Source: a virus
Taxonomy: Duplodnaviria > Caudoviricetes
Virus record (IMG/VR): IMGVR_UViG_3300017991_000133
Coordinates: 1-55,042 of that record
Length of the DNA stretch: 55,042 bases
Direction: 5' to 3' (one strand)
Both the position numbers and the translations under genes were made by a program. Positions 917 to 41,612 of the stretch are shown one piece after another. Below the pieces are notes generated by a model. The model saw only the letters and a program-made list of their open reading frames with translations. It was not told the origin of the DNA and searched no databases. Numbering within the stretch: position 1 is the stretch's first letter; the number at the start of each line of letters is the position of its first letter.

Positions 917-1198
917 TTACCTCCCCGTTTCATCACTTGCCTCTTTCTGTTTATGGTAGCCAAGCACCAGCAGCGCGCGTTCTATTTCCTGGCCGTACTC
1001 GGCCAGGGTATCGAGTAGCTGTTTTAGGTCCTGGGCCTCGAGGCGCTCGATGCGCACGCGAATGCTGCGCTGGTCCTCCCTTATGCCCCATACCCAAAGC
1101 TCTTTTTCAAACAGCAGCCACTGGGTTGCCAGGCCCGCCGTAAAAGCGATGATTACAGCCACAACCAGTTGCCAGCGCTTGTATCTAATCGGCTTCAT
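917..1198 (-). CDS. Small membrane-anchored coiled-coil hypothetical protein
   Basis: N-terminal hydrophobic segment LVVAVIIAFTAGLAT followed by a heptad-like region. Confidence 0.6.
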   Translation of the reverse strand: MKPIRYKRWQLVVAVIIAFTAGLATQWLLFEKELWVWGIREDQRSIRVRIERLEAQDLKQLLDTLAEYGQEIERALLVLGYHKQKEASDETGR

Positions 1199-1475
1199 CG
1201 GGCCTCTCCCCCATCGATCTGTCGATCTCGTTCCAGCTGTGGCAGCGCAGGGTCACCTCCACGTCGCCGGTGAAGAATATGTCGACTTCATCTCCGGTTT
1301 CCTCGATGATCGGCTCCAGGCGGAAGTCCATCGTAATCTGGCGCACGATGCAGCGGGCCAGCTGCGCGTGCAGCACCTCCCGCATCGTTGCCTCGGTCGG
1401 GTTCGTGATGGTCACCTGCCGGAGGATCCGGCGCTCGCCAATCTGAACGTGTTCCTTTTTGGTTATCTCTTCCAT
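1185..1475 (-). CDS. Hypothetical protein
   Basis: ORF overlapping its neighbours in a - strand operon. Confidence 0.6.
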   Translation of the reverse strand: MEEITKKEHVQIGERRILRQVTITNPTEATMREVLHAQLARCIVRQITMDFRLEPIIEETGDEVDIFFTGDVEVTLRCHSWNEIDRSMGERPDEAD

Positions 1476-1723
1476 GTCGTCTCTCCTTTCAGTTTTTGCC
1501 AGGCCACGGCTATAATGGCCGCTACGTAGACCGCGATCCCGGCTATTATCAGCAGCTTGGTCATGGCAGCCCTCCCCGGTCGCGAAGGTCTTCGAGGAAT
1601 CGCCGCTCGCGCCTGTCCATGATCCATCCGGCCAGGACGAACGGCCATGTTAGCGCAAAAAACCACAGCAGCACCACAGCCATGAGCGCCATGACCAGGG
1701 CTCCCTTTAGCTTGTCCCATATT

Positions 1724-2134
1724 CTATAAATCAAATCTCCTCCCCTTGGCCGGTATCCACGTGCCCAGCAGCACTCGTCCGGCCGGCACTAGGGCCTTTT
1801 GGAGCCCTGTTACTCTTATCAGTTGCCGGGCCTCCCAGTCTTGCGGGCCCTTGCGAACAAAGACAAACACCCGGTCCGCGTTCCAGTTCCAGGGCACGAG
1901 CTCCAGCGGCACGGCCTTGCGCTTCCAGCTGGCCTTGGGATCCGCCGTGGCCTGGATCCATAGCGTGATGGTTCGGGCCGGATGCTTTGCAATAATGTCT
2001 GCGCCGAACACGTCGCGTATCCGGGCCCAGCGGCCCCCTATGGGCAGGTTCGCTACACGCCAGCCGCGGTGCTGCAGCCACGCCGTCAGTTCGGCCTGGA
2101 AGTTAAGAGCCTTTTGTCGGTCCGCTTTGCCCAT
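1724..2134 (-). CDS. PD-(D/E)xK nuclease, Holliday-junction-resolvase-like
   Basis: 'DVFGADIIAKHP...LWIQAT' resembles the Hjc-like PD...(D/E/Q)xK layout; size and location fit. Confidence 0.55.
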   Translation of the reverse strand: MGKADRQKALNFQAELTAWLQHRGWRVANLPIGGRWARIRDVFGADIIAKHPARTITLWIQATADPKASWKRKAVPLELVPWNWNADRVFVFVRKGPQDWEARQLIRVTGLQKALVPAGRVLLGTWIPAKGRRFDL

Positions 2135-2546
2135 CGTGCTCCATCCTGTCAAAGAGCTGCTGCTGGCGTCTCAGCTGGTCCTGAAGCTTCCCGGTTAGGC
2201 TCTGCAGCACATCGAGCGTGCCTTGGATCGATACCAGGGCCTCGTTTGTCCTGTGGGCAGCCTCTTTCGCATACACCATGACATCGGATATGTTCATGTT
2301 TTTGTCGAGGTCGAGGCTGAGGCGCCACCACTGGCCGGCGTTGTTCCGGCTCTCCACCATGCCGCGCCGGTTTAACTTGCGCAGCACGTAGGATGCCTGG
2401 GCCACCTCTGTGCGCTCGGCTCCCGCCCTGAGATGGATGTGAGCGTTTATCTCCTTTGTGCTCAGCCACCTGGGCTTGTTCCGTTCCAGGTACGCCAAGA
2501 CAAAACGCTCCGCGTTCTCCGTCTTTTCCTGTTTCCTTTTTGCCAT
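2103..2546 (-). CDS. Winged-helix DNA-binding protein with coiled-coil tail
   Basis: 'LSTKEI...SYVLRKLNRRGMVES...WRL' wHTH pattern. Confidence 0.55.
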   Translation of the reverse strand: MAKRKQEKTENAERFVLAYLERNKPRWLSTKEINAHIHLRAGAERTEVAQASYVLRKLNRRGMVESRNNAGQWWRLSLDLDKNMNISDVMVYAKEAAHRTNEALVSIQGTLDVLQSLTGKLQDQLRRQQQLFDRMEHDGQSGPTKGS

Positions 2547-2559
2547 TCGTCACCTCCTG

Positions 2560-2979
2560 TTATGAGAATACTTTTTTCTTTCCGCCCGCCGCTTCCGGGC
2601 CCTTGCGCTGTTGGTCGATCCGGCGCAGCAGGCACTCGCACTTGCGTGCCACCTTGCGGCCGTCCTTTTCCTCGAGGATCCAGCCAGTATTGGAGCATTG
2701 GTCGCAGTAGCTGTCCATGTATTGCGGCCGGTCGCGGTCCATGGCCTCCCGGGCCAGGTGCGCCACCTCCGGCACCGTCGGCACCGAGCGCTGGTCAAAC
2801 AGGTCGCCGTCGCGTTTGTTCCGGATCGCCTGGTCGATGGCCTCCAGGATGTACTGGAGCGGTATGCTGGCCAGTTGGTTGAAATAGCTGTCCACAATGC
2901 CCGGCTCCGGCCTCCGTGTGAAGGCGTTTAGCATCTCGACCATCTTGCGCGCGAAGGTGTCCTTGTCCTCATGTTTCAT
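2560..2979 (-). CDS. Replication accessory protein (helicase loader/inhibitor-like) with C-terminal zinc ribbon
   Basis: 'SVPTVPEV' followed by CxxCxxxGW...CxC; lies downstream of the initiator. Confidence 0.5.
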   Translation of the reverse strand: MKHEDKDTFARKMVEMLNAFTRRPEPGIVDSYFNQLASIPLQYILEAIDQAIRNKRDGDLFDQRSVPTVPEVAHLAREAMDRDRPQYMDSYCDQCSNTGWILEEKDGRKVARKCECLLRRIDQQRKGPEAAGGKKKVFS

Positions 2980-3116
2980 TTTTTCCTCCGCCTCCTGGGC
3001 TTGCGCATGGTGGAAAGGGCGGCGTAGGCGAGCAGTGCCAGCATGCCGCAGAGCCAAAGTGCGGTTGCTCCGGCGGCCAGGGCCATCATCTGCAGCACTA
3101 GGATCATTTGCTCCTC

Positions 3117-3281
3117 TTACCAGCCAAGGTTCCTGTCGTCTTCGAGCCCGCGCCTATCTTTCCACTTGGCGCATGGGTAGTCGTTCACCTTGCGGTGCTC
3201 CTCCCGCACTATGCACCAGATCAGGTCGCTGCTTTCGGCCTCCTCGGCAAACAGGCAGCGCCCGCATGTGTAGTTGCTCAT
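3117..3281 (-). CDS. Small Cys-containing hypothetical protein (54 aa, not in ORF track)
   Basis: ATG overlaps the upstream stop; MSNYTCGRCLFAEE...WC...PCAKW. Confidence 0.5.
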   Translation of the reverse strand: MSNYTCGRCLFAEEAESSDLIWCIVREEHRKVNDYPCAKWKDRRGLEDDRNLGW

Positions 3282-3943
3282 TTGTCCTCCAGTCGTTCTA
3301 GGTTGCTTTTCGTCCGTATGCTTATGCCCTGCAGTCCCAGCGCGTCGGCCAGATCCTGCACCTTGCCCCAGCTGGGCTCCGGCAGGTTGTGGCCCTTGCT
3401 GTCGGCGCCGATGCTCACAAATTCCGGCCGGGCCAGTGCCACTAGCGCTTCCATAGGCTCTGGATCGAAGTCCATGACCGGCTCCACGCTCACCATCCTG
3501 CGGGCCGTCCGGCCCAGGAGCCTCAGGCTGGCAGCCCGGTCAAACACGCTGGCTCCCCCAGTGTAGTGGTTCGGGCGGTTCGTTTCGATGGTGGTCCCGA
3601 ATATTGTGGATGGCGGGAACTTGCCGTGAAACTCGAAGTAGCGCTTTGGGTTTTTCGATTGGAAGAGGTACGTGTTCTCCGGGTGGTCCGCGCATTTCTG
3701 CAGCACGGCTCTTATCCAGTCTGGATTGACGGATGCCGCGAACATGTCGGTCCCGCTGCCCACAAATATGGTGCGGTCCTGGCCAAGGTCTGTTGTGAGC
3801 TCTCGGCTCTTGAGCTCCAGGGCTTTGAGTGGGAAGCGCCGCATGTAGCAGTACATGCAGCCGTGGGGGCATCGGCCCTTTATCGGGTTCCAGGTGTGGC
3901 TCACCCAGGGGTACATGTTTCCCTTGCTTTCGCGTAGTGCCAT
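3278..3943 (-). CDS. Radical SAM protein, phage Gp37/Gp68 (DUF5131)-like
   Basis: 'TWNPIKGRCPHGCMYCYM' CxxxCxxC, 'IFVGSGTDMF', 'SVEP' motifs. Confidence 0.8.
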   Translation of the reverse strand: MALRESKGNMYPWVSHTWNPIKGRCPHGCMYCYMRRFPLKALELKSRELTTDLGQDRTIFVGSGTDMFAASVNPDWIRAVLQKCADHPENTYLFQSKNPKRYFEFHGKFPPSTIFGTTIETNRPNHYTGGASVFDRAASLRLLGRTARRMVSVEPVMDFDPEPMEALVALARPEFVSIGADSKGHNLPEPSWGKVQDLADALGLQGISIRTKSNLERLEDK

Positions 3944-3946
3944 GGG

Positions 3947-4375
3947 TCAGTTGTAGTGGAGCGTTTCCGCGGTCACCGTAATCGTGTGGGTTCCTATTTG
4001 GGCCGGGTCGTCGGGGATCGTTATGTCTATCTGCAGGCCCCTGGGCGAATCCGGGCCCAGGGTTATGGTGTCGTCCCCCAGCGGGAACACATAGGTCCAG
4101 TCGGCCGGGACCTCGACCGAGATCTGGATCTCTCCTGCAAATTCGTTAACTGAGGTGACGGTCACGCCTAGCGGGACGGTTCTGCCAATGGGCGATTTCC
4201 AGCCCTCTGGATAATTGAGCGCGAGCTCGAAGTCCGGCTTGGCCAGCACGTCTATGGTGGCCGTGGCTGTCTTCGTTATGATCGGCGGCGTCTGCGTGAA
4301 AACGATGATGGCCGCCACCACCAGGGCCAGCACGATGAAGATTATGCCGGCAATCAAAAGGCTTTTGTCTTTCAT
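3947..4375 (-). CDS. Membrane-anchored Ig-like beta-sandwich protein
   Basis: N-terminal TM helix, then alternating beta strands ('PDFEL', 'GTHTITVTA'). Confidence 0.6.
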   Translation of the reverse strand: MKDKSLLIAGIIFIVLALVVAAIIVFTQTPPIITKTATATIDVLAKPDFELALNYPEGWKSPIGRTVPLGVTVTSVNEFAGEIQISVEVPADWTYVFPLGDDTITLGPDSPRGLQIDITIPDDPAQIGTHTITVTAETLHYN

Positions 4376-4776
4376 TTTTTCCCTCCATTCTTTTTTTTAT
4401 CCACATGCCTGCGCAGCTCTTCCTGGCGGCTTGCCAGCAGGCTGCGGTAGGTTATGAGGTTTCGCTTTTTTGTGGGCGATATGTTTTTGTTTCCCTCTAG
4501 CAGAGTCTCTAGACGGTAGAGGGCGAGCTCCACGACCTTGCGCTCGCCCCGGTACTTTGTTCTGAGATGGTCGTACTCCCTGCGCTTGCATACGATGTAG
4601 AAGAGCGTGTCGAGCTCGGCGTCGTGCCTGAATATCTTTATGCCTCTCACGAATGATACCATAATTTCCTGGGCCAGGTCCTTTCGCCCGGGATCGTGCG
4701 GGCCCAGCAGCTTGGTGGCCCTGCCCAGGGCCTGGTTGTAATAGTGCTTTAGCACCATTCCCGAGGGTCGCTTCAT
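4372..4776 (-). CDS. Sigma-factor-like protein (ECF sigma region 2)
   Basis: 'DLAQEIMVSFVRGIKIF...LDTLFYIVCKRREYDHLR' matches the sigma-70 region 2 pattern. Confidence 0.6.
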   Translation of the reverse strand: MKRPSGMVLKHYYNQALGRATKLLGPHDPGRKDLAQEIMVSFVRGIKIFRHDAELDTLFYIVCKRREYDHLRTKYRGERKVVELALYRLETLLEGNKNISPTKKRNLITYRSLLASRQEELRRHVDKKKNGGKK

Positions 4777-5129
4777 TGCTGAGCCTCTACCTCGTCAAGA
4801 TACTCGTCTATCCTTGCCATAAGCTTTTTCGCTTTTTTCTCGTCCTTTTTGTCCCAGCCTGCGAGCGGGCTCAGGTCGGCAGCGGTCCCCAGGATCCTGG
4901 TGAACACAACCATGCAGCCCAGCCTGACCGGGCCGGTTTTTTTATGAAACTTGTGCAGCGGGCAGCCCCGGCAGCCTCTGTCTGCATACTTTATGCAAAA
5001 TGGGCAAGCGGTGCTTGGCCATGAGTTGGGTGTCGGTTTGGGGTTGAACCGCCTGCGGATCCAGGACCAGTCCTCTGCGCTTATGCTTATGAGCTTGCCG
5101 TCGATGCGTGTTCTAATCCTTTTCGCCAT
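4773..5129 (-). CDS. Cys-rich hypothetical protein
   Basis: CPFC...CRGCPL...C motif. Confidence 0.6.
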   Translation of the reverse strand: MAKRIRTRIDGKLISISAEDWSWIRRRFNPKPTPNSWPSTACPFCIKYADRGCRGCPLHKFHKKTGPVRLGCMVVFTRILGTAADLSPLAGWDKKDEKKAKKLMARIDEYLDEVEAQQ

Positions 5130-5745
5130 CTTTTTCTCCCATGATCCGCTCCCACCATGCCTGGCCGTAATTGACTCGGTGGTAGGGCGTGGGCCCGCGG
5201 AGGCGAAGCTGCTTGTACATAACGGGGTCAGGGCTGCCGTGGTTCGTCTCGAGATTGTATCCCGGGTAGAATGCCCCAAATCCTCCAAACAGAGCGTCCA
5301 CATAAATCTTAGCCACGATGCTCGCTGCGGCCACCTCGTAGATTCCCTTGTCGGCCTTTGTCTTGCAGGTCACAGGGATCCCGATCTTGCGGCGCATAAG
5401 ATTGAGAGCGGCCGCTGAGAAGTAGCCGTCAAGCAGAACGCTGGCCTTGTCTGTGCTTATTTGCATTGCGTAGAGCTTGTCGAGCAGCTGGCGCACGGCT
5501 GCTATCATGGCGTTGTTTCTGGCCAGGTGCACGCCTATATGGCTTATGTCCTGGACGGTTGCCAGGGTGACGGAGTAGATGTTGTGCTTTTGGAGCTCCG
5601 GCCAGACCTCGAGGCGCTGGGCTGGGCTCAGGAGCTTGCTGTCTCGCACGCCGGGCACTCTTTTGTTGGTGGGCGTTAACGCGCATACCACACAGTCGCC
5701 GGCAATGCTGGGGCTGAAGTTCACCTCATCGACTCCTATTATCAT
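5113..5745 (-). CDS. rnhB: Ribonuclease HII
   Basis: 'IIGVDEV', 'GVRDSKLLS', 'LLDG', 'KAD...VAAASIVAK', 'HR' motifs. Confidence 0.88.
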   Translation of the reverse strand: MIIGVDEVNFSPSIAGDCVVCALTPTNKRVPGVRDSKLLSPAQRLEVWPELQKHNIYSVTLATVQDISHIGVHLARNNAMIAAVRQLLDKLYAMQISTDKASVLLDGYFSAAALNLMRRKIGIPVTCKTKADKGIYEVAAASIVAKIYVDALFGGFGAFYPGYNLETNHGSPDPVMYKQLRLRGPTPYHRVNYGQAWWERIMGEKDGEKD

Positions 5746-5923
5746 CTGGCCGCCTCCTGTGTTATTTCGTAGAGGTGGCTGACCTCTCGCCGCCGTAAAA
5801 AGGGCCGCCGTCGCGTTTGCCGCGGAAATTCGCTTGGCGAGAGGTGTGCCGCGCGAATTTGCCTCGGCGTTCGTTTTTTTTCTGTGCGGTGTGGGTACCG
5901 CAGGGTTTTTAGATTTTTTTTCT

Positions 5924-6694
5924 TCATTTTTCCTCCTTGGGTTTTTTCACCCATGCCTCCAGGCTGGGTGGCAGCTTGTCGCTCCGCGGGTCGAATTTAT
6001 CCGTGCCTCCTGACTTCTGTTCCCTGGAAAGCCAGTTTCTGATGAAGGCTGCCCAGTTTTTTTTCTGGCCTTTTCCCGGCGCTCCTGTGCTCGTTGTCCA
6101 GTTGCGGATGCACCAGTCGGCCATGCGCAGGAGTTCGAGTTCGATATCGCATTTCGGGTATGCTTTTTTCCAAAGATTGAGGTCTTCGGTGGTGATGCCC
6201 CGCCAGAGACGCGCGCGCGCGTCAAACCTAAGTGCTACGCTATTGGTATCATCAATACAGTTCTTCTTCTTCTCTTTACTTTTAACTTTACATTTAAATT
6301 TAAGGCGGTTTAGGACCGGGGTACTGCTGGGGTGCCCCTGGTGTTCGGCTGGCGGGGGGCTGAATTTTGATGGCGCTTCGTCGCGGGTCCGTGGTTTGTT
6401 GAATGTGTGGAATGCCTTGTACTGGAGGACAGGCTGCTTGTGCTTTGGATCCTCGTAGAGCAGCACCAGGCCCGCGTTCGAAAGGTCCTCGAGGCTGTCG
6501 ATTATCTGGCCTGGCGACCAGGAGAGCAGCGGGCAGACGTCGAGCTTGATCTCTTTCGGGTCGGCCCAAAGCCGGCCCTGGACATCCAGGTGCGGCAGCA
6601 TGATGCAGTACAGGGTTCTGCTCCGCTCGAATCTCAGAGCGGCAAACTTTTCTGAGCGCGATATGCGCTTGTCTATTATTCTGCCTCTCGGCAT
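5924..6694 (-). CDS. Phage replication initiator (replisome organiser type)
   Basis: 'RGRIIDKRISRSEKF...LY...HLDVQGRL' N-terminus, wHTH, C-terminal 'KNWAAFIRNWL'. Confidence 0.75.
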   Translation of the reverse strand: MPRGRIIDKRISRSEKFAALRFERSRTLYCIMLPHLDVQGRLWADPKEIKLDVCPLLSWSPGQIIDSLEDLSNAGLVLLYEDPKHKQPVLQYKAFHTFNKPRTRDEAPSKFSPPPAEHQGHPSSTPVLNRLKFKCKVKSKEKKKNCIDDTNSVALRFDARARLWRGITTEDLNLWKKAYPKCDIELELLRMADWCIRNWTTSTGAPGKGQKKNWAAFIRNWLSREQKSGGTDKFDPRSDKLPPSLEAWVKKPKEEK

Positions 6695-6790
6695 GTCACC
6701 TCCTTTTGTCATGGGCGGCGCCGGCGGTCCATTGCGAGGTTGCGCTTTGGGAGGTTATCCAGGTTCGCACCGGCCGCCGCCCTTTTTTGT

Positions 6791-6997
6791 TCAATCGATG
6801 AATCCTATCGCGGCTTTTATCAGCGGAAGCTGCTTGTCAAGCACCCGGGCCATGTCGGAGAGATGTTTCGTTCCGGCTGCTATTGTCTGGATCGCACACT
6901 GGTCGGAGCGCCTGTCCCACCAGGCGCAGTCGCTTCGCTGGCAATATACCACGCCGCAAGTCCTCAGCGGGCATGATTTTTGGTCTTGGTCAATCAT
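6791..6997 (-). CDS. Small Cys-rich hypothetical protein
   Basis: CPL...C...CAWW...C motif common in small phage proteins. Confidence 0.6.
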   Translation of the reverse strand: MIDQDQKSCPLRTCGVVYCQRSDCAWWDRRSDQCAIQTIAAGTKHLSDMARVLDKQLPLIKAAIGFID

Positions 6998-8024
6998 CCT
7001 CTGTGCCTCCTATGTAGTTTATGGTGGTGCTGCTGGCCTGGGTTTCCTTTTGGTACTTGCGCTGCATGAGCTGGCGCACGGCCGGTGGCAGCTGCAGGCT
7101 CTTTGTGGTCCATGTCCTTGTCGTTATCTCCACATCGTGGTGGATGGCGTTGGCACCGTAGAATCGCCCGGGCGCGTTTTTTGTGCCTATGAGCTTGCGT
7201 TCCAGGGCCCGGCTCTCATCCACGGCCTCCTGGAGGGCGAGGTAGCGCTGGATGTCCTTGTAGTCCTCAGCGGTTATCTCCTGGAGGTTCGATACGTACT
7301 GGAGCGGCTGGCAGATGTGCTCGAAGTCGCAGAGGCCGCAGACGTCGCTTTCGTATTCAATCCTTGGCGGCAGCGTGCCCGCGGCCACGTGCTCGTTCAC
7401 GGCGATGCAGGTTTGGATGTGCTGCTCGGCCATGTCGTAGTCCAGCATCATGGGCAGGATCCTGGGAAGCTTCCCGAAGCTGCCGAGGATAAGAAATCCG
7501 CCCTCGTGGCCCTCGAGGAGAAGGTAGAGGTTCAGCTGCCCGGGCTTGCGCCGGATCCAGTGCTTAGAGTGGTTCTTTATCGCGTCGATGTTGCGCGTCG
7601 AGTCCCAGTACCAGGGCATGACGCTCGTGATCTCCATGGGCCAGCGGCGCTTCTCCGCGCCCACAATGAAGCCGTCTATGCGGCCCCGCAGCTGATACTT
7701 GTCCCAGCTTGTGCTCAGCTGCTGCAGCTGCACTTTGTAGCCGCAGCGGCGAAGCTGTTCCTCGACCTCGTCCTCCATGGCGATGCCGGCGTCCAGGCGC
7801 GCCTGCACATGGACGTCCTTTTGTTTCCGCTCTCTCCAGTGAGTGCGCGCGTAGACTAGAAATCGCCGGCAGGGATGAGGCACCTCGCTTGCCCAGTTGG
7901 CGGCATCGTGCGGCTTAGGGCCTCCGGCCTTTTCCAACTTGCGCTGGAGGTTGGCCTCCATCCTGTTGCCTATGTCGAATGAAATCTCGCGCAGCTGCTG
8001 GAGTGTGAGCTCCTGCTTAGCCAT
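6990..8024 (-). CDS. Cas4/RecB-like PD-(D/E)xK exonuclease
   Basis: 'ASEVPHPCRR', 'GRIDG', 'EITS', 'QLNLY' and C-terminal CxxCxxxxxC. Confidence 0.8.
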   Translation of the reverse strand: MAKQELTLQQLREISFDIGNRMEANLQRKLEKAGGPKPHDAANWASEVPHPCRRFLVYARTHWRERKQKDVHVQARLDAGIAMEDEVEEQLRRCGYKVQLQQLSTSWDKYQLRGRIDGFIVGAEKRRWPMEITSVMPWYWDSTRNIDAIKNHSKHWIRRKPGQLNLYLLLEGHEGGFLILGSFGKLPRILPMMLDYDMAEQHIQTCIAVNEHVAAGTLPPRIEYESDVCGLCDFEHICQPLQYVSNLQEITAEDYKDIQRYLALQEAVDESRALERKLIGTKNAPGRFYGANAIHHDVEITTRTWTTKSLQLPPAVRQLMQRKYQKETQASSTTINYIGGTEDD

Positions 8025-10854: not shown

Positions 10855-10883
10855 ATAATATAGGTCGCCATGGCGCTTGTCAA
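10855..10883 (-). promoter_or_regulatory. Leftward sigma70 promoter
   Basis: TTGACA-17 nt-TATTAT on the - strand; spacer contains palindrome CGCCATGGCG. Confidence 0.85.
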
Positions 10884-11116: not shown

Positions 11117-11145
11117 TTGACATTCGCCATGGCAAACGCTATATT
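11117..11145 (+). promoter_or_regulatory. Rightward sigma70 promoter driving the ribozyme-punctuated operon
   Basis: TTGACA-17 nt-TATATT with upstream A/T tracts (UP-like); spacer contains CGCCATGGCA. Confidence 0.88.
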
Positions 11146-11227
11146 ATTAATAGGATGAAAAAGAAAAAGGGCGACAGAGAGACGGTCAGCGGATGTCAAG
11201 GCCAGTTAGGTCAAGTCCTTTTCCTTG

Positions 11228-11239
11228 GCTCTTTGAAAA
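11228..11239 (+). promoter_or_regulatory. boxA-like antitermination site
   Basis: GCTCTTTGAAAA, ~80 nt downstream of the promoter, resembles rrn/lambdoid boxA. Confidence 0.6.
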
Positions 11240-11253
11240 AAGAAAGCTGAATA

Positions 11254-11378
11254 GGCTGCCTGGGGTGACTGCCCCAGCGCTCCTCGGCCGGCGAACCGGG
11301 CGGTAGCTGACGCGAGTCAGCGAGAATCGGATGGCTGCCCGAGGGTGCCAGCGCTGCGGCGGGTGTTCCCGGGGGCTC
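11254..11378 (+). ncRNA. Structured leader RNA of unknown function (branched rod)
   Basis: Nested pairings CAGCGCT/AGCGCTG and CCTCGG/CCGAGG; hairpins CCGG-CGAA-CCGG and GCTGAC-GCGA-GTCAGC. Confidence 0.5.
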
Positions 11379-11409
11379 GAAAAGCAGAATCAAAAACCTC
11401 CCTCCCAAA

Positions 11410-11479
11410 TTCGAAAGCGGGGAGGGCTTCTTCCCGCTCCCTCCGGTGCTAGCCGGCCGGGGGCTGAAGAGATAGGCTT
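11410..11479 (+). ncRNA. Type II hammerhead ribozyme 1 (predicted cut after C11439)
   Basis: GAAA 11413-16; stem III GCGGGGAG/CTTCCCGC; CUC triplet; stem I CCTCCGG/CCGGGGG; CUGAAGA 11464-70; stem II only 2 bp; loop AGCC pairs with tail GGCT. Confidence 0.8.
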
Positions 11480-11501
11480 AATTTTTTTTGGGAGGTTTTC
11501 T

Positions 11502-11744
11502 GTGAAATACACAATCGAAAAACTGGAGCTTGTGGATCCCGAGCGGAACCACTGCAAATTTTACGAGCTCGAGTATGACGCGTTCGATAAGAGCGCTGTC
11601 GTGGTCACCCGCCGCTGGGGCCGCATCGGCACCACCGGCCAGGTCCGAAAGGATACGTTCCCTACCAGCGTCGAGGGCTATGCCTTCTTCAACGAAATCC
11701 TTTACTCGAAGCTGCGCAAGGGCTACCGCACGGTAGATTGCTGA
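11502..11744 (+). CDS. Stand-alone WGR-domain protein
   Basis: GTG start after GGGAGG; 'NHCKFYEL...VTRRWGRIGTTGQ...KLRKGY'. Confidence 0.9.
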   Translation: MKYTIEKLELVDPERNHCKFYELEYDAFDKSAVVVTRRWGRIGTTGQVRKDTFPTSVEGYAFFNEILYSKLRKGYRTVDC

Positions 11745-11746
11745 AC

Positions 11747-11846
11747 GCCGAAACCGGGGCATCAGGGCCCGGGCATGTGGGCTTTGTCTGCATGCCGGTC
11801 CTCCCGGTCCCTCGGGTTGACATCCCGGGGCTGACGAGGCTGTCAG
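11747..11846 (+). ncRNA. Type II hammerhead ribozyme 2 (cut after C11809), extended stem III
   Basis: GCC-GAAA; stem III CCGGGG/TCCCGG with a long internal hairpin; GUC; stem I CCTCGGG/CCCGGGG; CUGACGA; GGC; loop TGACA pairs with tail TGTCA. Confidence 0.92.
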
Positions 11847-11871
11847 ATTAAATCTTTTGGGAGGTTTTCAA

Positions 11872-12162
11872 ATGTCTAAACTTTCATCTTATGCAATGGG
11901 CGGCGGCCGCAAGGCTAAGCCGGTTACGGATCCGTCCAAGTTCTCGCGTCATTTCAATCTGGACGATGTCGAGGGCATCATCGGGTTGATGGATGCCAAC
12001 GTTCTGGTGGCTGCGGCTGCCGGTCAGATCGACCTCAACGAGGTCGCTTCCTGGGAGTTGGCCAATCGCGGGATGAACCGCATGGGCGAATGGGTAGGCT
12101 TCGACGAGGCCAAGAGGCGCCATGAGGCGCGCGCCGTCACGCACGGCTGGCCTAAGAGGTAG
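11872..12162 (+). CDS. Small hypothetical early protein
   Basis: ATG after U-tract and GGGAGG; 'ELANRGMNRMGEWVGFDEAK'. Confidence 0.85.
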   Translation: MSKLSSYAMGGGRKAKPVTDPSKFSRHFNLDDVEGIIGLMDANVLVAAAAGQIDLNEVASWELANRGMNRMGEWVGFDEAKRRHEARAVTHGWPKR

Positions 12163-12230
12163 CCGAAACGGAGGGCTCCCCGATCCTCCGTCCCTCCGGG
12201 GTGACTTCCCGGAGGCTGATGAGGCAAGTC
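12162..12230 (+). ncRNA. Type II hammerhead ribozyme 3 (cut after C12192)
   Basis: GCC-GAAA; stem III CGGAGGG/TCCTCCG; GUC; stem I CCTCCGGG/CCCGGAGG; CUGAUGA; GGC; loop GACTT pairs with tail AAGTC. Confidence 0.95.
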
Positions 12231-12253
12231 GAAAAATTTTGGGAGGTTCAAAA

Positions 12254-12571
12254 ATGTTTGAGAAAGACTGTGATTATGAGGTCATGAAAGACGGCGCCAG
12301 CCTGGTCGCTTCGGTGGCCATGGGATCCGGCATCGGCACTTCCTGGAGGCAGAAATCCTTTAAGCTTCCTAAGGGCGCGCTTATCCACTACGAGGGCCGC
12401 GGGAAGGCCATTTTTTCCGGCAGTGTCGAGATGGAATTCTTTTCCATCGTGACCTCGGGATTTGGCGCAGACGCCGGTTCGGACATGAGCGGAGTTGTTT
12501 ACTTCAAAGGCTATTTCGAGCCTAATTCCTGGGGCTGCGTGCCTGCTGGGTATCTCCGCAAGGTCGACTAA
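12254..12571 (+). CDS. Small hypothetical early protein
   Basis: ATG after GGGAGG; MFEKDCDYEV...GYLRKVD. Confidence 0.85.
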   Translation: MFEKDCDYEVMKDGASLVASVAMGSGIGTSWRQKSFKLPKGALIHYEGRGKAIFSGSVEMEFFSIVTSGFGADAGSDMSGVVYFKGYFEPNSWGCVPAGYLRKVD

Positions 12572-12635
12572 TCGAAACGGGGGCTTGGGGCCCTCGTCGC
12601 CGGGAGGTGACCGTCCCGGCCTGAAGAGATAGGTC
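12571..12635 (+). ncRNA. Type II hammerhead ribozyme 4 (cut after C12598)
   Basis: ATC-GAAA; stem III CGGGGGC/GCCCTCG; GUC; stem I GCCGGGA/TCCCGGC; CUGAAGA; GAT; loop GACC pairs with tail GGTC. Confidence 0.95.
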
Positions 12636-12661
12636 GAAATTAATTTGGGAGGTTTTCTAAA

Positions 12662-13057
12662 ATGGCTAAGAAAAAAGAACAGTGGGCAATCGATTATGAG
12701 GTCCGGGTCGCGGCCATCCGGCGGGCGATTAATGTGGACGGCCACAAGTTCTATCTTGACACCTATTTGGGCCGCAAGCTGGTCCTGGCCATTGACGCGG
12801 ATGGCAGCACTGCTGTTTCCGGCCTTGGCACCTGGAGCCAGCACTCCTGGGCGATCTGCTCCACTCAGGTTTATCCCTGGGCAGAGGAGATTGGGATCCC
12901 TCAGGACAAGCACTTCAAGTTCGAAGTGTTCTCAACTCACCGCAGCGAGCAGGCCGCCGAGAAGCGGGCGCTCATGGAGCTCGATGTCAAGTCTTTTGTC
13001 GATTACCGGATCGTCAACCAGCCCAATGGGCTTTCTGTCCTATGGGTTGCTAGATGA
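12662..13057 (+). CDS. Hypothetical early protein
   Basis: ATG after GGGAGG; 131 aa. Confidence 0.85.
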   Translation: MAKKKEQWAIDYEVRVAAIRRAINVDGHKFYLDTYLGRKLVLAIDADGSTAVSGLGTWSQHSWAICSTQVYPWAEEIGIPQDKHFKFEVFSTHRSEQAAEKRALMELDVKSFVDYRIVNQPNGLSVLWVAR

Positions 13058-13059
13058 CA

Positions 13060-13123
13060 GCCGAAACGGGGCGCCGCCCCGTCCTCCCGGGAGTGACCGT
13101 CCGGGAGCTGAAGAGGCAGGTCA
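13060..13123 (+). ncRNA. Type II hammerhead ribozyme 5 (cut after C13083)
   Basis: GCC-GAAA; stem III CGGGGC/GCCCCG; GUC; stem I CTCCCGGG/TCCGGGAG; CUGAAGA; GGC; loop TGACC pairs with tail GGTCA. Confidence 0.95.
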
Positions 13124-13149
13124 AATTATTTTCTTTGGGAGGTGTTTTT

Positions 13150-13410
13150 ATGAGTAAGGAAAAACTCGTTTCTATTCCAGCCGGGTTTAAGTGCCCGGCC
13201 GTTGCTAACTTGCCGGCGGATCCGGCGCTCGAGAGTATGGAGTGCTCGGTGTTCGGTCAGACAAACTGGTTCTGCCCCTACGCTGCTTTTCCGTGCTTAG
13301 AGGAGCGCCGGCTGAGCGCTGACTGTCCGTATGCTCCTGCTGAAATCTGGCGCCACTTCCGGAATTTCCGCGAGCGCGTAGAGCTCGAGGCGCTGGAGGG
13401 AAAGGGATGA
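13150..13410 (+). CDS. Small Cys-rich hypothetical early protein
   Basis: ATG after GGGAGG; five Cys. Confidence 0.8.
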   Translation: MSKEKLVSIPAGFKCPAVANLPADPALESMECSVFGQTNWFCPYAAFPCLEERRLSADCPYAPAEIWRHFRNFRERVELEALEGKG

Positions 13411-13631
13411 CAAAAATCAAGGAATATTTAAACACTCCTGTTTTTGTTTTTCTCTATGAAGATGCTATTCCGGAGGTCATTCTCTGGATGGTGTTTTACA
13501 ATGGCATCGTCGATGCCGTGGAGCTGCTGGCGGCATGGCTCGGGGATGCGTCCGAGACTTATCTTCGCGGCTTAACGGTTACCGTCGTCGACGCCGATGA
13601 GCTGCCGGGCGATCCCTTTGAGTGGATGTGA
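13407..13631 (+). CDS. Small acidic hypothetical protein
   Basis: ATGA-coupled to the previous gene. Confidence 0.75.
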   Translation: MTKIKEYLNTPVFVFLYEDAIPEVILWMVFYNGIVDAVELLAAWLGDASETYLRGLTVTVVDADELPGDPFEWM

Positions 13632-13696
13632 TCGAAACGGGCCCTTGCGGGCTCGTCGCTCCGGGTTGATCACCGGGGCCTGATGAGATTGATCAA
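13631..13696 (+). ncRNA. Type II hammerhead ribozyme 6 (cut after C13657)
   Basis: ATC-GAAA; stem III CGGGCCC/GGGCTCG; GUC; stem I GCTCCGG/CCGGGGC; CUGAUGA; GAT; loop TTGATCA pairs with tail TGATCAA. Confidence 0.95.
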
Positions 13697-13718
13697 ATTT
13701 TTTATGGGAGGTATCGTT

Positions 13719-13955
13719 ATGGACCGTTTAAGTGGACAGAAAAATTTCCACTACGGGCTGGACTTCGTACTCAGTCACCGCGCCGAAGATGTGGCAGAGG
13801 CCATCGATATGCTGGCCAGCCGCAATCGCTTTGAGAAGGTCAAGCGGGTCGTTATTCGGCCTGAGGAGAAGCCCGCTCTGCGACGGCAGCTCGAGGAGCG
13901 CATGAAGGTGCGCCGCCGCAAGGCTGAGCGCCGCCGCGGGGAGTACCGGAAATGA
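13719..13955 (+). CDS. Small basic hypothetical protein
   Basis: ATG after GGGAGG. Confidence 0.8.
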   Translation: MDRLSGQKNFHYGLDFVLSHRAEDVAEAIDMLASRNRFEKVKRVVIRPEEKPALRRQLEERMKVRRRKAERRRGEYRK

Positions 13956-14182
13956 CCTTACAGGCACTTTTGGTAATAGGGCTGCTGCTCTGGTGCTTTG
14001 CGCTGACCGTGCTGCTTATGCGCGAGATGCGCCGCTGCGACCGGATGCGGCACAAGCTGCTTGAGATCCTCCGCGAAATGACGGCGGATTCTCACCAGCA
14101 GGATCTGTTCCCCCAGGCTTATCGTGATGCGGTTTCGCATTACTCTCTGGCCATAGAAGGAGTTGTCAATGAAAGTGATTAG
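13952..14182 (+). CDS. Small membrane-anchored hypothetical protein
   Basis: N-terminal TM; ATGA coupling. Confidence 0.7.
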   Translation: MTLQALLVIGLLLWCFALTVLLMREMRRCDRMRHKLLEILREMTADSHQQDLFPQAYRDAVSHYSLAIEGVVNESD

Positions 14183-14405
14183 CGAGATTAAGCTGCCAGG
14201 TGATATCGAGGTCAAAAAGGTTCCGTCCGACCAGATCCGCGTAGAGATCACCATGGAGTGCACGGACATCTATTTCCGCGAGCTGGATGCATCGATCCAG
14301 GAGGCGGTGGGAAGGTCGTTCCAGGAGCTGCTGCAGAGCGCTGTTATGCGACAGGTGGAAAAGGTAGAGGAGAATTACCTGGAGCGGATTCGGGCGAAAT
14401 CTTAG
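14169..14405 (+). CDS. Small hypothetical protein
   Basis: ATG after AGGAG; overlaps the previous stop. Confidence 0.75.
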   Translation: MKVISEIKLPGDIEVKKVPSDQIRVEITMECTDIYFRELDASIQEAVGRSFQELLQSAVMRQVEKVEENYLERIRAKS

Positions 14406-14507
14406 CCGAATCGGGACCATTCCCCGGAGGTCCCGATGGTGCGGCGATGGCTGACCGCGCCCTGATGATCGCGAGAGCGAGTGCGCCGAGAGGTGCACGG
14501 CAGGCCA
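14405..14507 (+). ncRNA. Variant type II hammerhead ribozyme 7 (U15.1-A16.1 swap, two inserted GAGA hairpins; predicted cut after U14437)
   Basis: GCC-GAAU; stem III CGGGACC/GGTCCCG; GAU; stem I GGTGCGG/CCGCGCC; CUGAUGA; TCGC-GAGA-GCGA; GTGCGCC-GAGA-GGTGCAC; GGC; loop TGGCT pairs with tail GGCCA. Confidence 0.75.
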
Positions 14508-14529
14508 AAATTCAACGGGAGGTATCGTT

Positions 14530-14859
14530 ATGAAAATTTATTTCGGTGTTGGCTCGGGTCCCGGCCCGAGGCTGATCGAGGTCCTGGGAAGCCGGGACGG
14601 TGCGGGCAGAGAGGCTCGGCCCTATCCGCTGCGCCATTTCGTCCGGCACAGTCCGGATGGCTTTCAGTGGGGATATGCAGGGAGCGGGCCCGCGGATGCG
14701 GCGCGCTGTATTTTGATCGATTGCGTAGGAGTCGATCTGGCGGATCGTTTTTACCAGCGATTCAAGCAGGACTTCATCGCTCCTGCCGGCGACCGGCTGT
14801 ATATCACGGAGGCGGAGATCCGCGAATGGCTGGAGGATCAGGCTGGGTACTATGGATAA
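14530..14859 (+). CDS. DUF6166-like protein
   Basis: 'RHSPDGFQWGYAGSGPADAARCIL...YQRFKQDFIA' signature. Confidence 0.75.
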   Translation: MKIYFGVGSGPGPRLIEVLGSRDGAGREARPYPLRHFVRHSPDGFQWGYAGSGPADAARCILIDCVGVDLADRFYQRFKQDFIAPAGDRLYITEAEIREWLEDQAGYYG

Positions 14860-15103
14860 GTTCGAGTCGCAGGAGGTCGGGTTTCAGCTTGCTGCGGAGG
14901 CCGGCGTTCCGGTCCGCGGCATCGTCGATGGTGTAAGGTACATTTTCTTTCCTTCTGGCCATCGCAAGGAGGTCAGAGCAGGAGGCATGAAACGCTCGCC
15001 CACGGCGCCGCTCGATGCGGATACGAAAGTCGTGAGGTGCCCGGCGTGTCGCTTCACAGTATTCCGGGATGGCTGCTGCAGCTACTGTGGAGAGAAATTT
15101 TAG
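14852..15103 (+). CDS. Small zinc-ribbon protein
   Basis: C-terminal CPAC...CSYCG. Confidence 0.7.
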   Translation: MDKFESQEVGFQLAAEAGVPVRGIVDGVRYIFFPSGHRKEVRAGGMKRSPTAPLDADTKVVRCPACRFTVFRDGCCSYCGEKF

Positions 15104-15119
15104 CCTCCCAAATCTTTTA

Positions 15120-15156
15120 GGCCCAGGGGCCGGTTGGTTCCTGGGCCTTTTTTTTT
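15120..15156 (+). terminator. Intrinsic terminator ending the + strand operon
   Basis: GGCCCAGG/CCTGGGCC hairpin followed by T9. Confidence 0.85.
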
Positions 15157-15364
15157 GGCCAAAAATATCGGCGCACAGGCGGCTTCTGGTCGCCTCGTTT
15201 CGTAAAAAGCCGTATTTCAGGATGAAAGCGCAGGATAAATAGTGCAAAAAGCCCTAATATTGCACAAGCTATTGAAATTGTGCTGTTTAGGCCGGAATAA
15301 AAACGCTCTGAGAGGCGCTACGGCGGGCGTTCTCTTGTCGATGCTTATATCCGGTCGCTCAAAA

Positions 15365-37732: not shown

Positions 37733-40700
37733 TTATCCGCTGCTGGCAGTGCCGCCCATGCTGAAGGCTGTTATGTGGCCTTCTTGAATGAGGTTCCATA
37801 CGCCGGGCTCTGTGATCTTTAGCATCAGCCACCAGGAGCCCTTTTTTACGGTCTGGCCGCCCCGGGTTATGTCGTGTTCCGGCTGGAAGCACTCAAGGAT
37901 CGGAAAGGTGTAGCTCTTGCCCCGGTGCTGGACCTTGATCCGCTGGCTGTCCTTGGCGTACTTCTCCATGAAGCGGTACATGGCATCCTGGATGTCCTGG
38001 GCCGAGGTGTAGTCGCCCTGGGTGTCCACCACGTCTGGCTCGTAGACCACTCCGCCCACGATCTGCTTCGTCTTCAGCTGCTTGAGGATCCGGAATTCCA
38101 GGTTCAGGGCTTTCGCGACAGGCTCCTCTATGGCCACTGTGCGCAGAACGCGGCCGCCTTGGGCCTTGATGTCGGCCATTCCTTTCATGCTGTGCTCGGC
38201 GCAGACGGGCACGTATGCTCGGCCGTCGGCCCATATGTGACTCTTCACGGCCGGCTTGTCGCAGTACTTGCACTTGTGCGACTTTGTGGCCGCCTCTTTC
38301 GTGACCGCCTGGTGGTCGCTGTCCTTTAGCCTGCTCATCATCCAGACTCTTTCGCCCTCCCCTGTGGGCACGTAGCTGAATAAATAGTTGCCGTCGAGGA
38401 TCCGGCCGCCGGTGAAGCGGATCTTTTTGGCGTGCTCGTCGGCCTTGTATATCTCCCAGTCAAACGAGTCCAGGTTGACGAGCGCGGCGTATTTGTGGGC
38501 GGAGGCTCCAACGGTGCCAGGCTCGAAGATCTCGATTTTTTGCTTGCCGGCGGTCATCCAGCTCAGCGGCCCTCGCACAATGTTCTGCTGGCGCTCCCCT
38601 TTATGGCTGACCTTCCATGAGAAGCGCAGCTTCGCGTTCTCCGTATCGAGCTTATCGAGCTTGCTAAGCCCGGTGAGATTGCCCACCAGGATCTCGCCGC
38701 CCTCCCAGTAGTCCTTGCCTGCAGGCCGCAGGCGAATGTCGCAGTGTACTCCCTTTTCTCCAAGAACGTCCTTTAGGGCGCGCTCGAGCTTGGCTGGCGT
38801 AAAACGGGCCACTAGGATCCGGCTTTGGGCCTCTTTCAGAGCTTTTGTCTGGTCCTCCTCGATGCCCATGATGTGAGCCTGTAGCACGCCGGTGCCCTTT
38901 GTCCCGGGCTCAAAGTCGATGTTTCCCTCGGCCCCTGTGGTGCCCTCGTCCTTGGCCACCTGGCCCACTCCGGGTCTGTCAGCGCGTCGCATCGTGCCTC
39001 CGCATTTGGGGCACTTGAGCTCTACGCAGTGCTCGGTGGTCGTCAGCCGGTGGCCGCAATCGATGCACTCGCAATCGTAGCGGGTCTTGTCGATGGTGAC
39101 GTCGCGGATGGTGTTTTTTATGCCCGGCGGGGGATCGTAGCCCACGGGGGGCTCGAATTCCTCTATCACGTCGAGCTCGTAGGCGGCCTTAAAGCCGTCC
39201 CGGCCGGTGTAGCGCAGCTGCACAACTCCCAGGATGTGCTTGTTCTCGACCAGGTAGATTCGCTTGCCCACATAGCCGCTGCTCAGCTTCTGGCCAAGCA
39301 GCAGGGTGCCGCTCTTCATGGCTTCCGCTCCCTGGGGCTTCTGGACGTAGATGCCCCGCAGTGTTTTTGCCTTTGTCACCTGAAGAACGTTTGCCCGGCG
39401 GGCCACGTCGGCTGCCTGGGCGGCGGTATAGGGCTCCTTGCGCCCGCTGTCTTTGTCAATCACTCGCGGGCCCAGCCAGACAAGCTTGCCATCCTGCGGG
39501 ATGAGCTCCTCAATTCCAACGGTCAGGATGTCACCGATGTCAGCTTTTATCTCTGTGGTGTAGGTCTTCCCCAGGACCACCAGCTTTTTGCTGTCCACGT
39601 CCGTCGTGTTCGCATAGTCGCTATCTGCCTTTAGCACTCCGCAGCTGTATACGTAGCGGCCGCCCTTGGCCGTGTGGCGATCCAGAACCTGGGCCTTTAT
39701 CTCGGCCTCCACCTTAAGCTTTGCCCATCCGGGCTCGCTGCCGTCGAGACTCCAGGTGCTCTTTACGTCCTTTATGACCACTCCCTCGCTCTGCGGGAGC
39801 CTGGCGAATTCTTTAAATCTGTCCTCGAGCTCCTCGAGGCTTTTGATCTGGACAGATCTCGTCATGTCGAAGTGTGGGCTGGCTTTCAGGTGCTCGCCGT
39901 AGAATTCCTCCAGCGCCTTTCGCCTTTCTGAGAATGGCTGGTCGTGGAGATCTTTGTCCCTGTAGGGCATGTCGAAGACGGTGGCCACGATGCGGTCCTT
40001 TTCGCCAAGCTGCGGCTTCGCGGCCATGAGCGTCATGAGCTCAATGCGGGGCAGCGGCTTGCCGTCCCTCTCTATGCCTACGCTCGAGTCCAGGATAAAG
40101 GCGCCGGGGATTCTGGCCAGCTCCTGGGTCAGCGTCGGGTATTTCGCGGCGTGATTCTCGCGGTTCTCGCTCATGATCTTTACGGTGTCGCCCTGCTTGG
40201 CCAGCACCATGCGGAATCCGTTAAGCTTCGGCTCTGCTACCAGGGTGCGATCCTTGGCCCAGGAGGCGATCTCTTTGACGCTGTATGCCTCGGTCAGCCC
40301 CGCCATGGTCGGCTTGGGCGGGTCGTAGCGGCCGAATGGCGTGAGCTCCCTGGCCTTGGCCACAGCCTTTTTGTCCCAGCGCACCAGGGCGGCGTTCGAG
40401 CGCTTGATCTCGTGGATGGCGTAGCGGGAGTCGTCAGCCAGGCGCTCCTGCAGGGCGGCTGCCGTCTTGAATTCATGGGCGTGTGTGGGGTCGTATCGTT
40501 TGCCCAGCGGCACGAGCGCCACAATGCGCTCGGCTGCCACACGCTCCGCCTCCCTCAGGAGGTGCTCTGTGTTCTTTACATGCTCCAGGCTGTGAACCAT
40601 GACGACGTTGTCCCAGCTGTTGGAGTCGTAGGGCAGCGGATCCTCTTCAAGGTCGACGTCCACGACGTCCAGGCCCCGCTTGCGGCAGTAGCGCAGCGCG

Positions 40701-41452: not shown

Positions 41453-41612
41453 TCTTCCCTCCTGCAGCCTTTTCGTATGGCAGCCTGCGGCCGCACCCGC
41501 TTCGCGGGCACTTGGCCATGGTCCGGTAGCCCTTGCGGCGGATTGCACAGCAGGCCGTGACCACGATCATCTTGCCTCCGCATCCTGGGCACCTATTTGT
41601 CGCTATCCTCAT
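41406..41612 (-). CDS. Small zinc-ribbon protein
   Basis: CPGCGG...CC...CPRSGCG. Confidence 0.6.
   Translation of the reverse strand: MRIATNRCPGCGGKMIVVTACCAIRRKGYRTMAKCPRSGCGRRLPYEKAAGGKNENRGHQGRDSKERR

Follow-up and report, generated by a model that had tools for sequence, protein, structure and literature searches.

Introduction

The early transcript of bacteriophage T7 is cut by RNase III in its intergenic spacers to give unit mRNAs that keep a 3′ hairpin; the enzyme is a protein of the host that acts on double-stranded sites and leaves a 5′ phosphate and a 3′ hydroxyl. A different device for setting the ends of a message is the RiboJ insulator, which was engineered from the type III hammerhead of a satellite RNA and whose cleavage in the 5′ untranslated region (UTR) leaves a hairpin and a standard ribosome-binding site. 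Here we describe an operon that bears comparison with both. It lies in the genome of a tailed phage, IMG/VR virus record IMGVR_UViG_3300017991_000133, the whole of which (55,042 bases; CheckV completeness 100%) we call the window, and it carries seven type II hammerhead ribozymes, HH1 to HH7, one ahead of each gene unit. The cuts would fall in the spacers as they do in T7 early RNA, but the RNA would make them itself and leave a 5′ hydroxyl (5′-OH) and a cyclic phosphate. Upstream context would be removed much as it is by RiboJ, whereas the modules of the window are natural, of type II, and repeated seven times.

The closest described systems are found in prophages. Perreault et al. (2011, PLoS Comput Biol; PMC3088659) reported that individual prophage genes, or short runs of them, are often flanked by more than one hammerhead, and that the genes so flanked are not constant; they proposed that processing converts the long transcripts of phages into mRNAs of the length of an operon or a single gene. 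Triple arrays of three bacteria cleaved in vitro as expected, and one did so also in Escherichia coli (PMC3088659). The arrays of Clostridium scindens, Azorhizobium caulinodans and Agrobacterium tumefaciens resemble the one described here in that same-strand hammerheads flank phage genes, the genes vary, the type II pseudoknot is present, and a role in transcript processing is proposed. They differ in that here there are seven copies, all of type II and together filling every spacer of one promoter-to-terminator unit, and in that the present array sits in a complete phage genome, holds each ribozyme at a set distance from the start codon that follows, and is known from sequence. The sequence-only reading from which this work began implied that an operon built of hammerheads was new. 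That does not hold, for both the arrangement and the idea of processing are in Perreault et al. (2011; PMC3088659), and with the concept already published the window offers a large and unusually tidy example. In the literature that we searched, no operon-wide array with seven copies or more is described; the supplements and Figure 3 of Perreault et al. (2011) and Weinberg 2015 lay outside that search, and we do not claim that such descriptions are absent.

Two other systems bear on the comparison. Three type II copies of Desulfovibrio vulgaris cleave in vivo as judged by cyPhyRNA-seq (PMC8782182). They are like ours in type, and their 5′-OH and 2′,3′-cyclic phosphate ends were captured from cells, but the three copies stand at separate genome locations and form no operon-wide array. 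The HHphage hammerhead of haloviruses HF1 and HF2 lies, as in our operon, a few nucleotides before the first open reading frame (ORF) of an early polycistronic transcript, and a mapped 5′ end falls within 3 nt of its cleavage site; in the account given in PMC3088659, however, it is a single copy, a high-salt variant, and belongs to an archaeal virus. De la Peña 2017 and Weinberg 2019 repeat the prophage picture and call the function open, and a 2026 paper still describes the role of bacterial and phage hammerheads as open.

Seven Type II Hammerheads Occupy the Leader and Spacers of One Operon

The operon forms a + strand island at about 11.1–15.2 kb of the window and consists of 11 small ORFs, which make up seven gene units (ORF1, ORF2, ORF3, ORF4, ORF5-6, ORF7-8-9 and ORF10-11). 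Six junctions between ORFs are non-overlapping spacers, and at the other four the start and stop codons overlap. A hammerhead is present in all six spacers and in the leader of the operon, as had been proposed: the Rfam model RF02276 (Hammerhead_II) matches the window at these seven places, all on the + strand. Four of the matches (42.0–48.5 bits, with whole-window E-values from 5.8e-7 to 3e-5) lie above the gathering score of the model, which is 37 bits, namely HH3 (12161–12234; 42.0 bits), HH4 (12570–12638; 44.9 bits), HH5 (13059–13125; 48.5 bits) and HH6 (13630–13697; 45.6 bits). The remaining three are HH2 (11746–11848; 31.0 bits), HH1 (11409–11481; 30.0 bits, and 73.8 bits with a model of our own, R2) and the variant HH7 (14404–14510, the RF02276 match covering 14404–14481; 26.9 bits). 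Their low scores accompany a stem III with an extension of roughly 40 nt in HH2, a G15.2–C16.2 pair in stem III of HH1 (whose core is canonical), and a variant core and an insertion in HH7. The expectation that a search with Hammerhead_II would return six or seven matches was thus borne out in number, with three of the seven below the gathering score. A covariance model built from HH4 and HH6 only recovered the other five copies; the two strands of the 55,042 bases yielded no further match. It was a two-copy alignment that seeded the model; MAFFT alignments of the copies were inconsistent with the structure and were dropped.

Judged by the core criteria that Perreault et al. (2011) list (C3 U4 G5 A6 N7 G8 A9, G12 A13 A14, A15.1–U16.1 and H17), HH1 to HH6 have the full consensus core: CUGA[A/C/U]GA, GAA, A15.1–U16.1 and C17. 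All seven copies have the type II topology, in which stems I and III are closed by loops and stem II is open, the elements following in the order stem II 5′ strand, GAAA, stem III, H17, stem I, CUGANGA, stem II 3′ strand. Aligned to the model, the H17 positions predict cleavage after C11439, C11809, C12192, C12598, C13083 and C13657 and, in HH7, at U17 (14437). The internal pieces would measure 370, 383, 406, 485, 574 and 780 nt and the end pieces about 288 and about 719 nt. The sites and fragment sizes read earlier from the sequence are identical to these.

The seven copies belong to modules of nearly fixed geometry. Each runs from the upstream stop codon through the hammerhead, a tail that pairs with loop I, an A/U-rich spacer and the sequence GGGAGG to the start codon. 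The distance from the cut to the next start codon is 61–66 nt in six copies and 92 nt (62 nt plus a 30-nt insertion) in HH7. On the other side, the end of the upstream stop codon lies 26–32 nt before the cut, except in HH2, where the distance is 65 nt because of the long stem III. Stem II abuts or overlaps the stop codon of the preceding ORF, and in four of the six internal copies the two share one base.

At its ends the operon is bounded by a sigma-70-like promoter (TTGACA-17 nt-TATATT; 11117–11145, + strand), which matches the consensus at 11 of 12 positions, in agreement with the earlier claim for a promoter there, and by an intrinsic terminator (15119–15156, + strand) with a 13-bp stem (15119–15148) followed by a T run. 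No promoter or terminator comparable to these was found in the interior. Because one promoter and one terminator bracket the array and nothing comparable lies inside, a single self-processing transcript is the simplest reading. (Weak Rfam matches at about 15050–15170, to suhB/mmgR and others, represent the terminator hairpin and were rejected, all being below the gathering score.)

We put at roughly 70% the probability that the locus is a self-processing unit of roughly 4 kb that yields a leader RNA and gene-unit mRNAs. While being transcribed, a single RNA from the sigma-70-like promoter would cut itself at six sites, with a seventh perhaps cut as well, and cleavage would turn the polycistronic RNA into the leader RNA and the mRNAs of the individual units. 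The last base of each upstream piece would lie one position beyond the stem III hairpin and carry a 2′,3′-cyclic phosphate, and each downstream piece would begin at the stem I hairpin with a 5′-OH. Every unit would have hairpin-capped ends, a uniform 5′ UTR and a strong Shine–Dalgarno (SD) sequence, and its stability and translation would depend neither on the neighbouring units nor on host endonucleases. We infer cleavage, the single transcript, its "early" timing and the effects on stability and translation from the sequence; most likely the six canonical copies self-cleave during transcription, and HH7, if it is active, is probably slower.

The Copies Differ in Sequence and Keep Their Pairing

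For an analysis of covariation we used 16 copies, comprising the seven of the window, eight from a syntenic metagenome contig (L193; see below) and one from a terminase relative (G003), together with 500 shuffles. Standard pairs occupied 95.4% of the cells of the alignment, as compared with 74.5 ± 1.5% in the shuffles and 31–58% in slid controls, and double changes were seen in 20 of the 21 pairs. Stems I to III accounted for 15 of these (among 16 stem pairs), with pairing in 91–100% of cells. The remainder belong to a pseudoknot between loop I and the tail, which is absent from the covariance model: 87.7% of its cells pair and all five of its pairs show double changes. A contact of this kind, between loop I and the segment after stem II, is the tertiary contact in the majority of type II hammerheads, according to PMC3088659. 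In HH6 the pseudoknot comprises 7 bp (from the sequence and the aligned columns), and in HH2 and its L193 ortholog its register is shifted, by eye, by one base. A smaller set, made up of the seven copies and one relative, gave much the same result (95.6% of cells pairing versus 76.1% in shuffles; double changes in 16 of 21 pairs), which upholds the claim that the stems vary and yet stay paired. The structure of the copies is under selection.

Identity among the window copies ranges from 54% to 80% with a mean of 66%, and copies from different phages are 61% identical. Since the copies of the window are nearly as dissimilar as those of different phages, they are old and do not stem from recent duplication. 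When the copies were folded singly, the minimum free energy (MFE) fold was the hammerhead fold for HH3 and HH5, and the other copies that were folded, HH1 and HH2 aside, retained stems I and III.

A separate observation concerns stem I at 11440–11463, 12193–12215 and 13084–13107 of the window, where CCUCC-like and GGAGG-like strands resemble anti-SD and SD sequences. The likeness may be a matter of chance in G+C-rich stems.

HH7 Is a Variant

HH7 had been counted as one of seven like copies. Its type II topology and its site bear this out, and its core does not: HH7 has U15.1–A16.1 and U17 and so departs from the consensus. It carries in addition a 30-nt insertion (14469–14498, + strand) of two hairpins with GAGA loops (−17 kcal/mol, z −5.2), which sits between CUGAUGA and the stem II 3′ strand (GGC, pairing with 5′ GCC) and is not repeated elsewhere in the window. 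The MFE fold of the entire copy is a five-way junction of −52.7 kcal/mol (z −3.6), which none of 200 shuffles equalled, and the tail downstream of the insertion forms the pseudoknot in the same register as in the other copies, judged by eye from the aligned columns. A natural U15.1–A16.1 hammerhead cleaves with reduced efficiency according to PMC3088659, and hammerhead alignments are said in PMC10085705 to hold at most 1–2 nt inserted next to CUGAnGA. The U15.1–A16.1 pair and the two-hairpin insertion of 30 nt make the activity of HH7 doubtful; we would give about one chance in three that it is usefully active. It would be either a slow copy, a dead one, or a new structural variant. Were it dead, the last piece would be 1.5 kb long.

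Arrays of Seven or More Copies Recur in Unrelated Viral Contigs

A pattern derived from HH3 and HH5 matched at least 120 stretches in viral contigs. Full records were scanned with RF02276 (E ≤ 1e-3) for the 80 listed matches, a sample that was preselected for at least one copy, so that the counts are not frequencies. At least four same-strand matches were present in eight of the 80 listed records and at least seven in four of them. In G095 we found nine (all above the cut-off), in an array (L189) of nine type II hammerheads between small ORFs at 1077–7043. G036 has ten, and its array (L190; 2569–7558) comprises 10–11; G042 has eight, in an array (L191; 11368–14304) of 7–9; and G028 has seven, in an array (L192; 57381–67843) of 7–11. 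Our own model R2 detected 9, 10, 7 and 11 copies in these four arrays, each of which lies on one strand with the hammerheads between small ORFs.

The layout of stop codon, hammerhead, spacer, SD and start codon is common to the window and the four unrelated arrays. By loose, descriptive criteria, an SD-led ORF of at least 35 amino acids (aa) starts 31–99 nt after the cut in 37 of the 38 non-window copies, and an ORF stops 20–39 nt before the cut in 33 of 38. Among 60 ORFs of the other arrays that were scanned, Pfam recognized six families (DUF7178, DUF932, DUF2786, DUF7168, DUF4241 and MarR_2, one ORF each). In G095 and in G036 the copies within the genome show about 83% identity, a sign of recent spread inside these two genomes. 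Arrays of 7–11 copies recur in unrelated uncultivated phages, so that the arrangement is a general phage design.

A Syntenic Contig Suggests Turnover of Gene Units at the Modules

The metagenome contig L193 (8.2 kb) is syntenic with the operon. It shares with the window the upstream − strand gene, the promoter and the leader; its homologs of ORF1 to ORF5 are 54%, 51%, 82%, 67% and 51% identical; and it has eight type II hammerheads (3243–6636) in the 3.4 kb up to the contig end, with copies at matching junctions. The best L193 match of HH1 (3243–3315) is 83% identical and shows compensatory changes, that of HH2 (3589–3691; 80%) has the same stem III extension, and that of HH3 (3913–3980) is 89% identical. 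Five of the L193 copies have one extra U after CUGAUGA, and two have an extra base inside the heptamer.

The comparison bears on an alternative in which the hammerhead–SD module is mainly a junction for the turnover of gene cassettes, cleavage being secondary or enabling. Each accessory gene would travel with its own ribozyme and ribosome-binding site, and the modules of roughly 100 nt would serve as patches of homology. Several features fit. The repeated unit consists of the 3′ half of the hammerhead, the spacer and the SD and reaches as far as the start codon; in this stretch HH6 and HH7 agree at 16 of 16 bases. L193 has extra units, an ORF (4004–4267) with a copy at 4269 and a copy at 5386 with ORFs up to 6005, each with its own hammerhead. 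A segment found in L193 only, between its matches to window 12144–12259 and 12235–12555, is bounded by repeated spacer and SD sequence, and HH4, which precedes ORF4, has its nearest L193 copy before the ORF3 homolog (83% versus 77%). Furthermore, gene content is not shared: blastp at 1e-3 found no protein in common between the five arrays. This single comparison suggests that gene units have been gained, lost or exchanged at the modules. However, the window copies, at 54–80% identity, are too diverged for efficient homologous recombination, and the covariation bespeaks selection on RNA fold and catalytic core, for which a homology patch has no need. We regard cassette turnover as an unlikely main role for the modules, and one that would be compatible with a self-processing transcript.

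Self-Processing Weighed Against Other Readings

Several observations weigh against the proposal that the operon transcript processes itself. Three of the seven copies are under the RF02276 gathering score (HH2, HH1 and HH7, as given above), and HH7 departs from the family both in its U15.1–A16.1 pair and in its 30-nt insertion. The alignments from which pairs were counted had been fitted to the model, which favours stems I to III. Taken alone, HH1 and HH2 have MFE folds that are not hammerheads (z −0.2 for HH1; pairing of core with tail in HH2). Related phages can do without the array: among 26 viral records related by terminase (27–69% identity for most) a hammerhead match was found only in G003, and there a single one, and none in G005, a terminase relative that is 91% complete. 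Finally, what the cuts would do for the stability, translation and timing of the mRNAs is our inference.

Cleavage during transcription could also serve to disconnect the nascent RNA, thereby blocking Rho polarity or limiting RNA-guided or RNase defences, with no part in making stable mRNAs. HH1 would remove a 288-nt untranslated leader and every unit would start afresh, which suits such a role, as does the character of the genes: these are small accessory ORFs, eight of 11 without a family, the families named in the other arrays include DUF932, DUF2786/DUF7168 and MarR, and ardA is the gene in the published A. tumefaciens array (PMC3088659). The geometry of a hairpin at both ends is better explained if the pieces are stabilized; we hold disconnection to be improbable.

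Still less probable is a rejoining of the pieces into circular or spliced mRNAs, whether through reversal of the hammerhead reaction or through an RtcB-type ligase of the host. Every internal piece would carry the ends that ligation needs, and Perreault et al. (PMC3088659) raised the possibility; they sought spliced and circular products and found none (data not shown in that paper). Inspection by eye showed that a chimeric hammerhead would have the full 3-bp stem II in one of the six pieces (HH2–HH3) and 1–2 bp elsewhere. Since a single piece of six has fully matching stem II strands, we rejected circularisation by chimeric hammerheads as the principle of the design. That most copies are inactive relics or structural look-alikes, as the three copies below the Rfam cut-off, the aberrant HH7 and the close kin without an array might suggest, is the least likely of these readings, given an intact core in six of seven copies, strong compensatory variation that includes the pseudoknot, and junction copies in L193 that are 80–89% identical where the proteins between them are 51–82% identical.

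If the transcript does process itself as we propose, the arrays would be a natural counterpart of the ribozyme insulators of synthetic biology. A bolder picture, which we offer tentatively and think rather unlikely to be right in all its parts, is that phages use the module as a standard connector in islands of accessory genes, with up to about eleven unrelated small genes strung together and each freeing and capping its own mRNA, and that the module is at the same time a patch where cassettes are gained, lost and swapped between phages. In this picture no natural hammerhead before HH7 would have had a large insertion between CUGANGA and stem II, HH7 being perhaps a slowed or regulated copy, and HH1 releases a new leader RNA, conserved and structured, of about 290 nt and of no known family. 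The new points relative to published work are the HH7 variant, the evidence for unit turnover at the modules, and the conserved structured leader. The promoter and terminator of the locus are defined, six of its ribozymes are canonical and one is a variant, its geometry is fixed, and a syntenic relative allows comparison; this makes it a compact test case for the question of whether ribozyme punctuation alters mRNA half-life, translation, polarity or defence evasion.

The Leader Is a Candidate Structured RNA

The leader ahead of HH1 (11152–11408, + strand; 257 nt) would be released as an upstream piece of about 288 nt if transcription starts near 11152. Alignment with L193 (2983–3242) reveals long invariant blocks, and the promoter block is conserved too. 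A consensus fold of the two sequences (RNAalifold) has 66 pairs, seven of them with both sides changed, and the fold of the single sequence has a z of −1.0. No Rfam family matches the leader at E ≤ 1, and of two pattern scans of viral contigs one gave 0 matches to it and the other 10 chance matches without further similarity. A leader ORF of 31 codons was considered and rejected as coding, since a comparison by eye with L193 showed changes at second codon positions, an indel of 1 nt and a stop that is not conserved. With two sequences compared, the leader is a candidate for a new structured RNA.

Genes of the Operon and Relatives of the Phage

All 11 ORFs, each on the + strand, were scanned against Pfam and ten, with ORF11 left out, against PHROGs. 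Three had family matches. ORF1 (11502–11744; 80 aa) has a WGR domain (PF05406, E 4.3e-17), ORF2 (11872–12162; 96 aa) matches phrog_22970 (E 5.6e-10), and ORF10 (109 aa), which overlaps ORF11 (83 aa) in the unit at 14530–15103, belongs to DUF6166 (PF19663, E 2.3e-21). The other eight are without a family: ORF3 (12254–12571; 105 aa); ORF4 (12662–13057; 131 aa); ORF5 (86 aa) and ORF6 (74 aa), whose stop and start overlap, at 13150–13631; ORF7 (78 aa), ORF8 (76 aa) and ORF9 (78 aa), likewise overlapping, at 13719–14405; and ORF11, for which the Pfam scan found no match. For ORF2 and ORF4 a search of viral contigs found no relative. Ten loci have a relative of the DUF6166 gene, none of them with a hammerhead above the Rfam gathering score and one with a twister-P5. 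Another viral contig (L012) has a type-P5 twister ribozyme at 1480–1540 (46.3 bits), 4.5 kb from a DUF6166 gene.

The single copy in G003 (5331–5402 of locus L065; 38.8 bits) has a CUGACAA core, with A at position 8 and no compensating U3, and U17; its layout of tail, spacer, SD and start codon is that of the window copies. The operon had no blastn match among 50,697 GenBank phage records, and the nearest terminases of cultured phages are less than 30% identical. A terminase scan of a genome collection gave one match of 60%, in a 13.9-kb contig (L194) from a Candidatus Pacearchaeota metagenome-assembled genome bin, the remaining matches (24–29%) being mostly to Clostridia contigs. The contig with the 60% match may be phage DNA placed in the wrong bin. 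As to the host, the sigma-70-like promoters and the SD sites are suggestive of a bacterium. A second such promoter, again with 11 of 12 consensus matches, lies at 10883–10855 on the − strand, divergent from and opposite the promoter of the operon.

Elsewhere in the window are the genes of a tailed phage, almost all of them on the − strand; they include terminase, portal, Mu F-like protein, XkdF-type protease and tape measure. The Mu F-like head protein (42147–43685, − strand) resembles NAD:arginine ADP-ribosyltransferase weakly at its C terminus (E 8.5e-4, below the cut-off), and an ORF of 1271 aa (37733–41548, − strand) combines domains of a SAM methyltransferase, an ATP-dependent DNA ligase and, at its C terminus, an XkdF-type phage protease.

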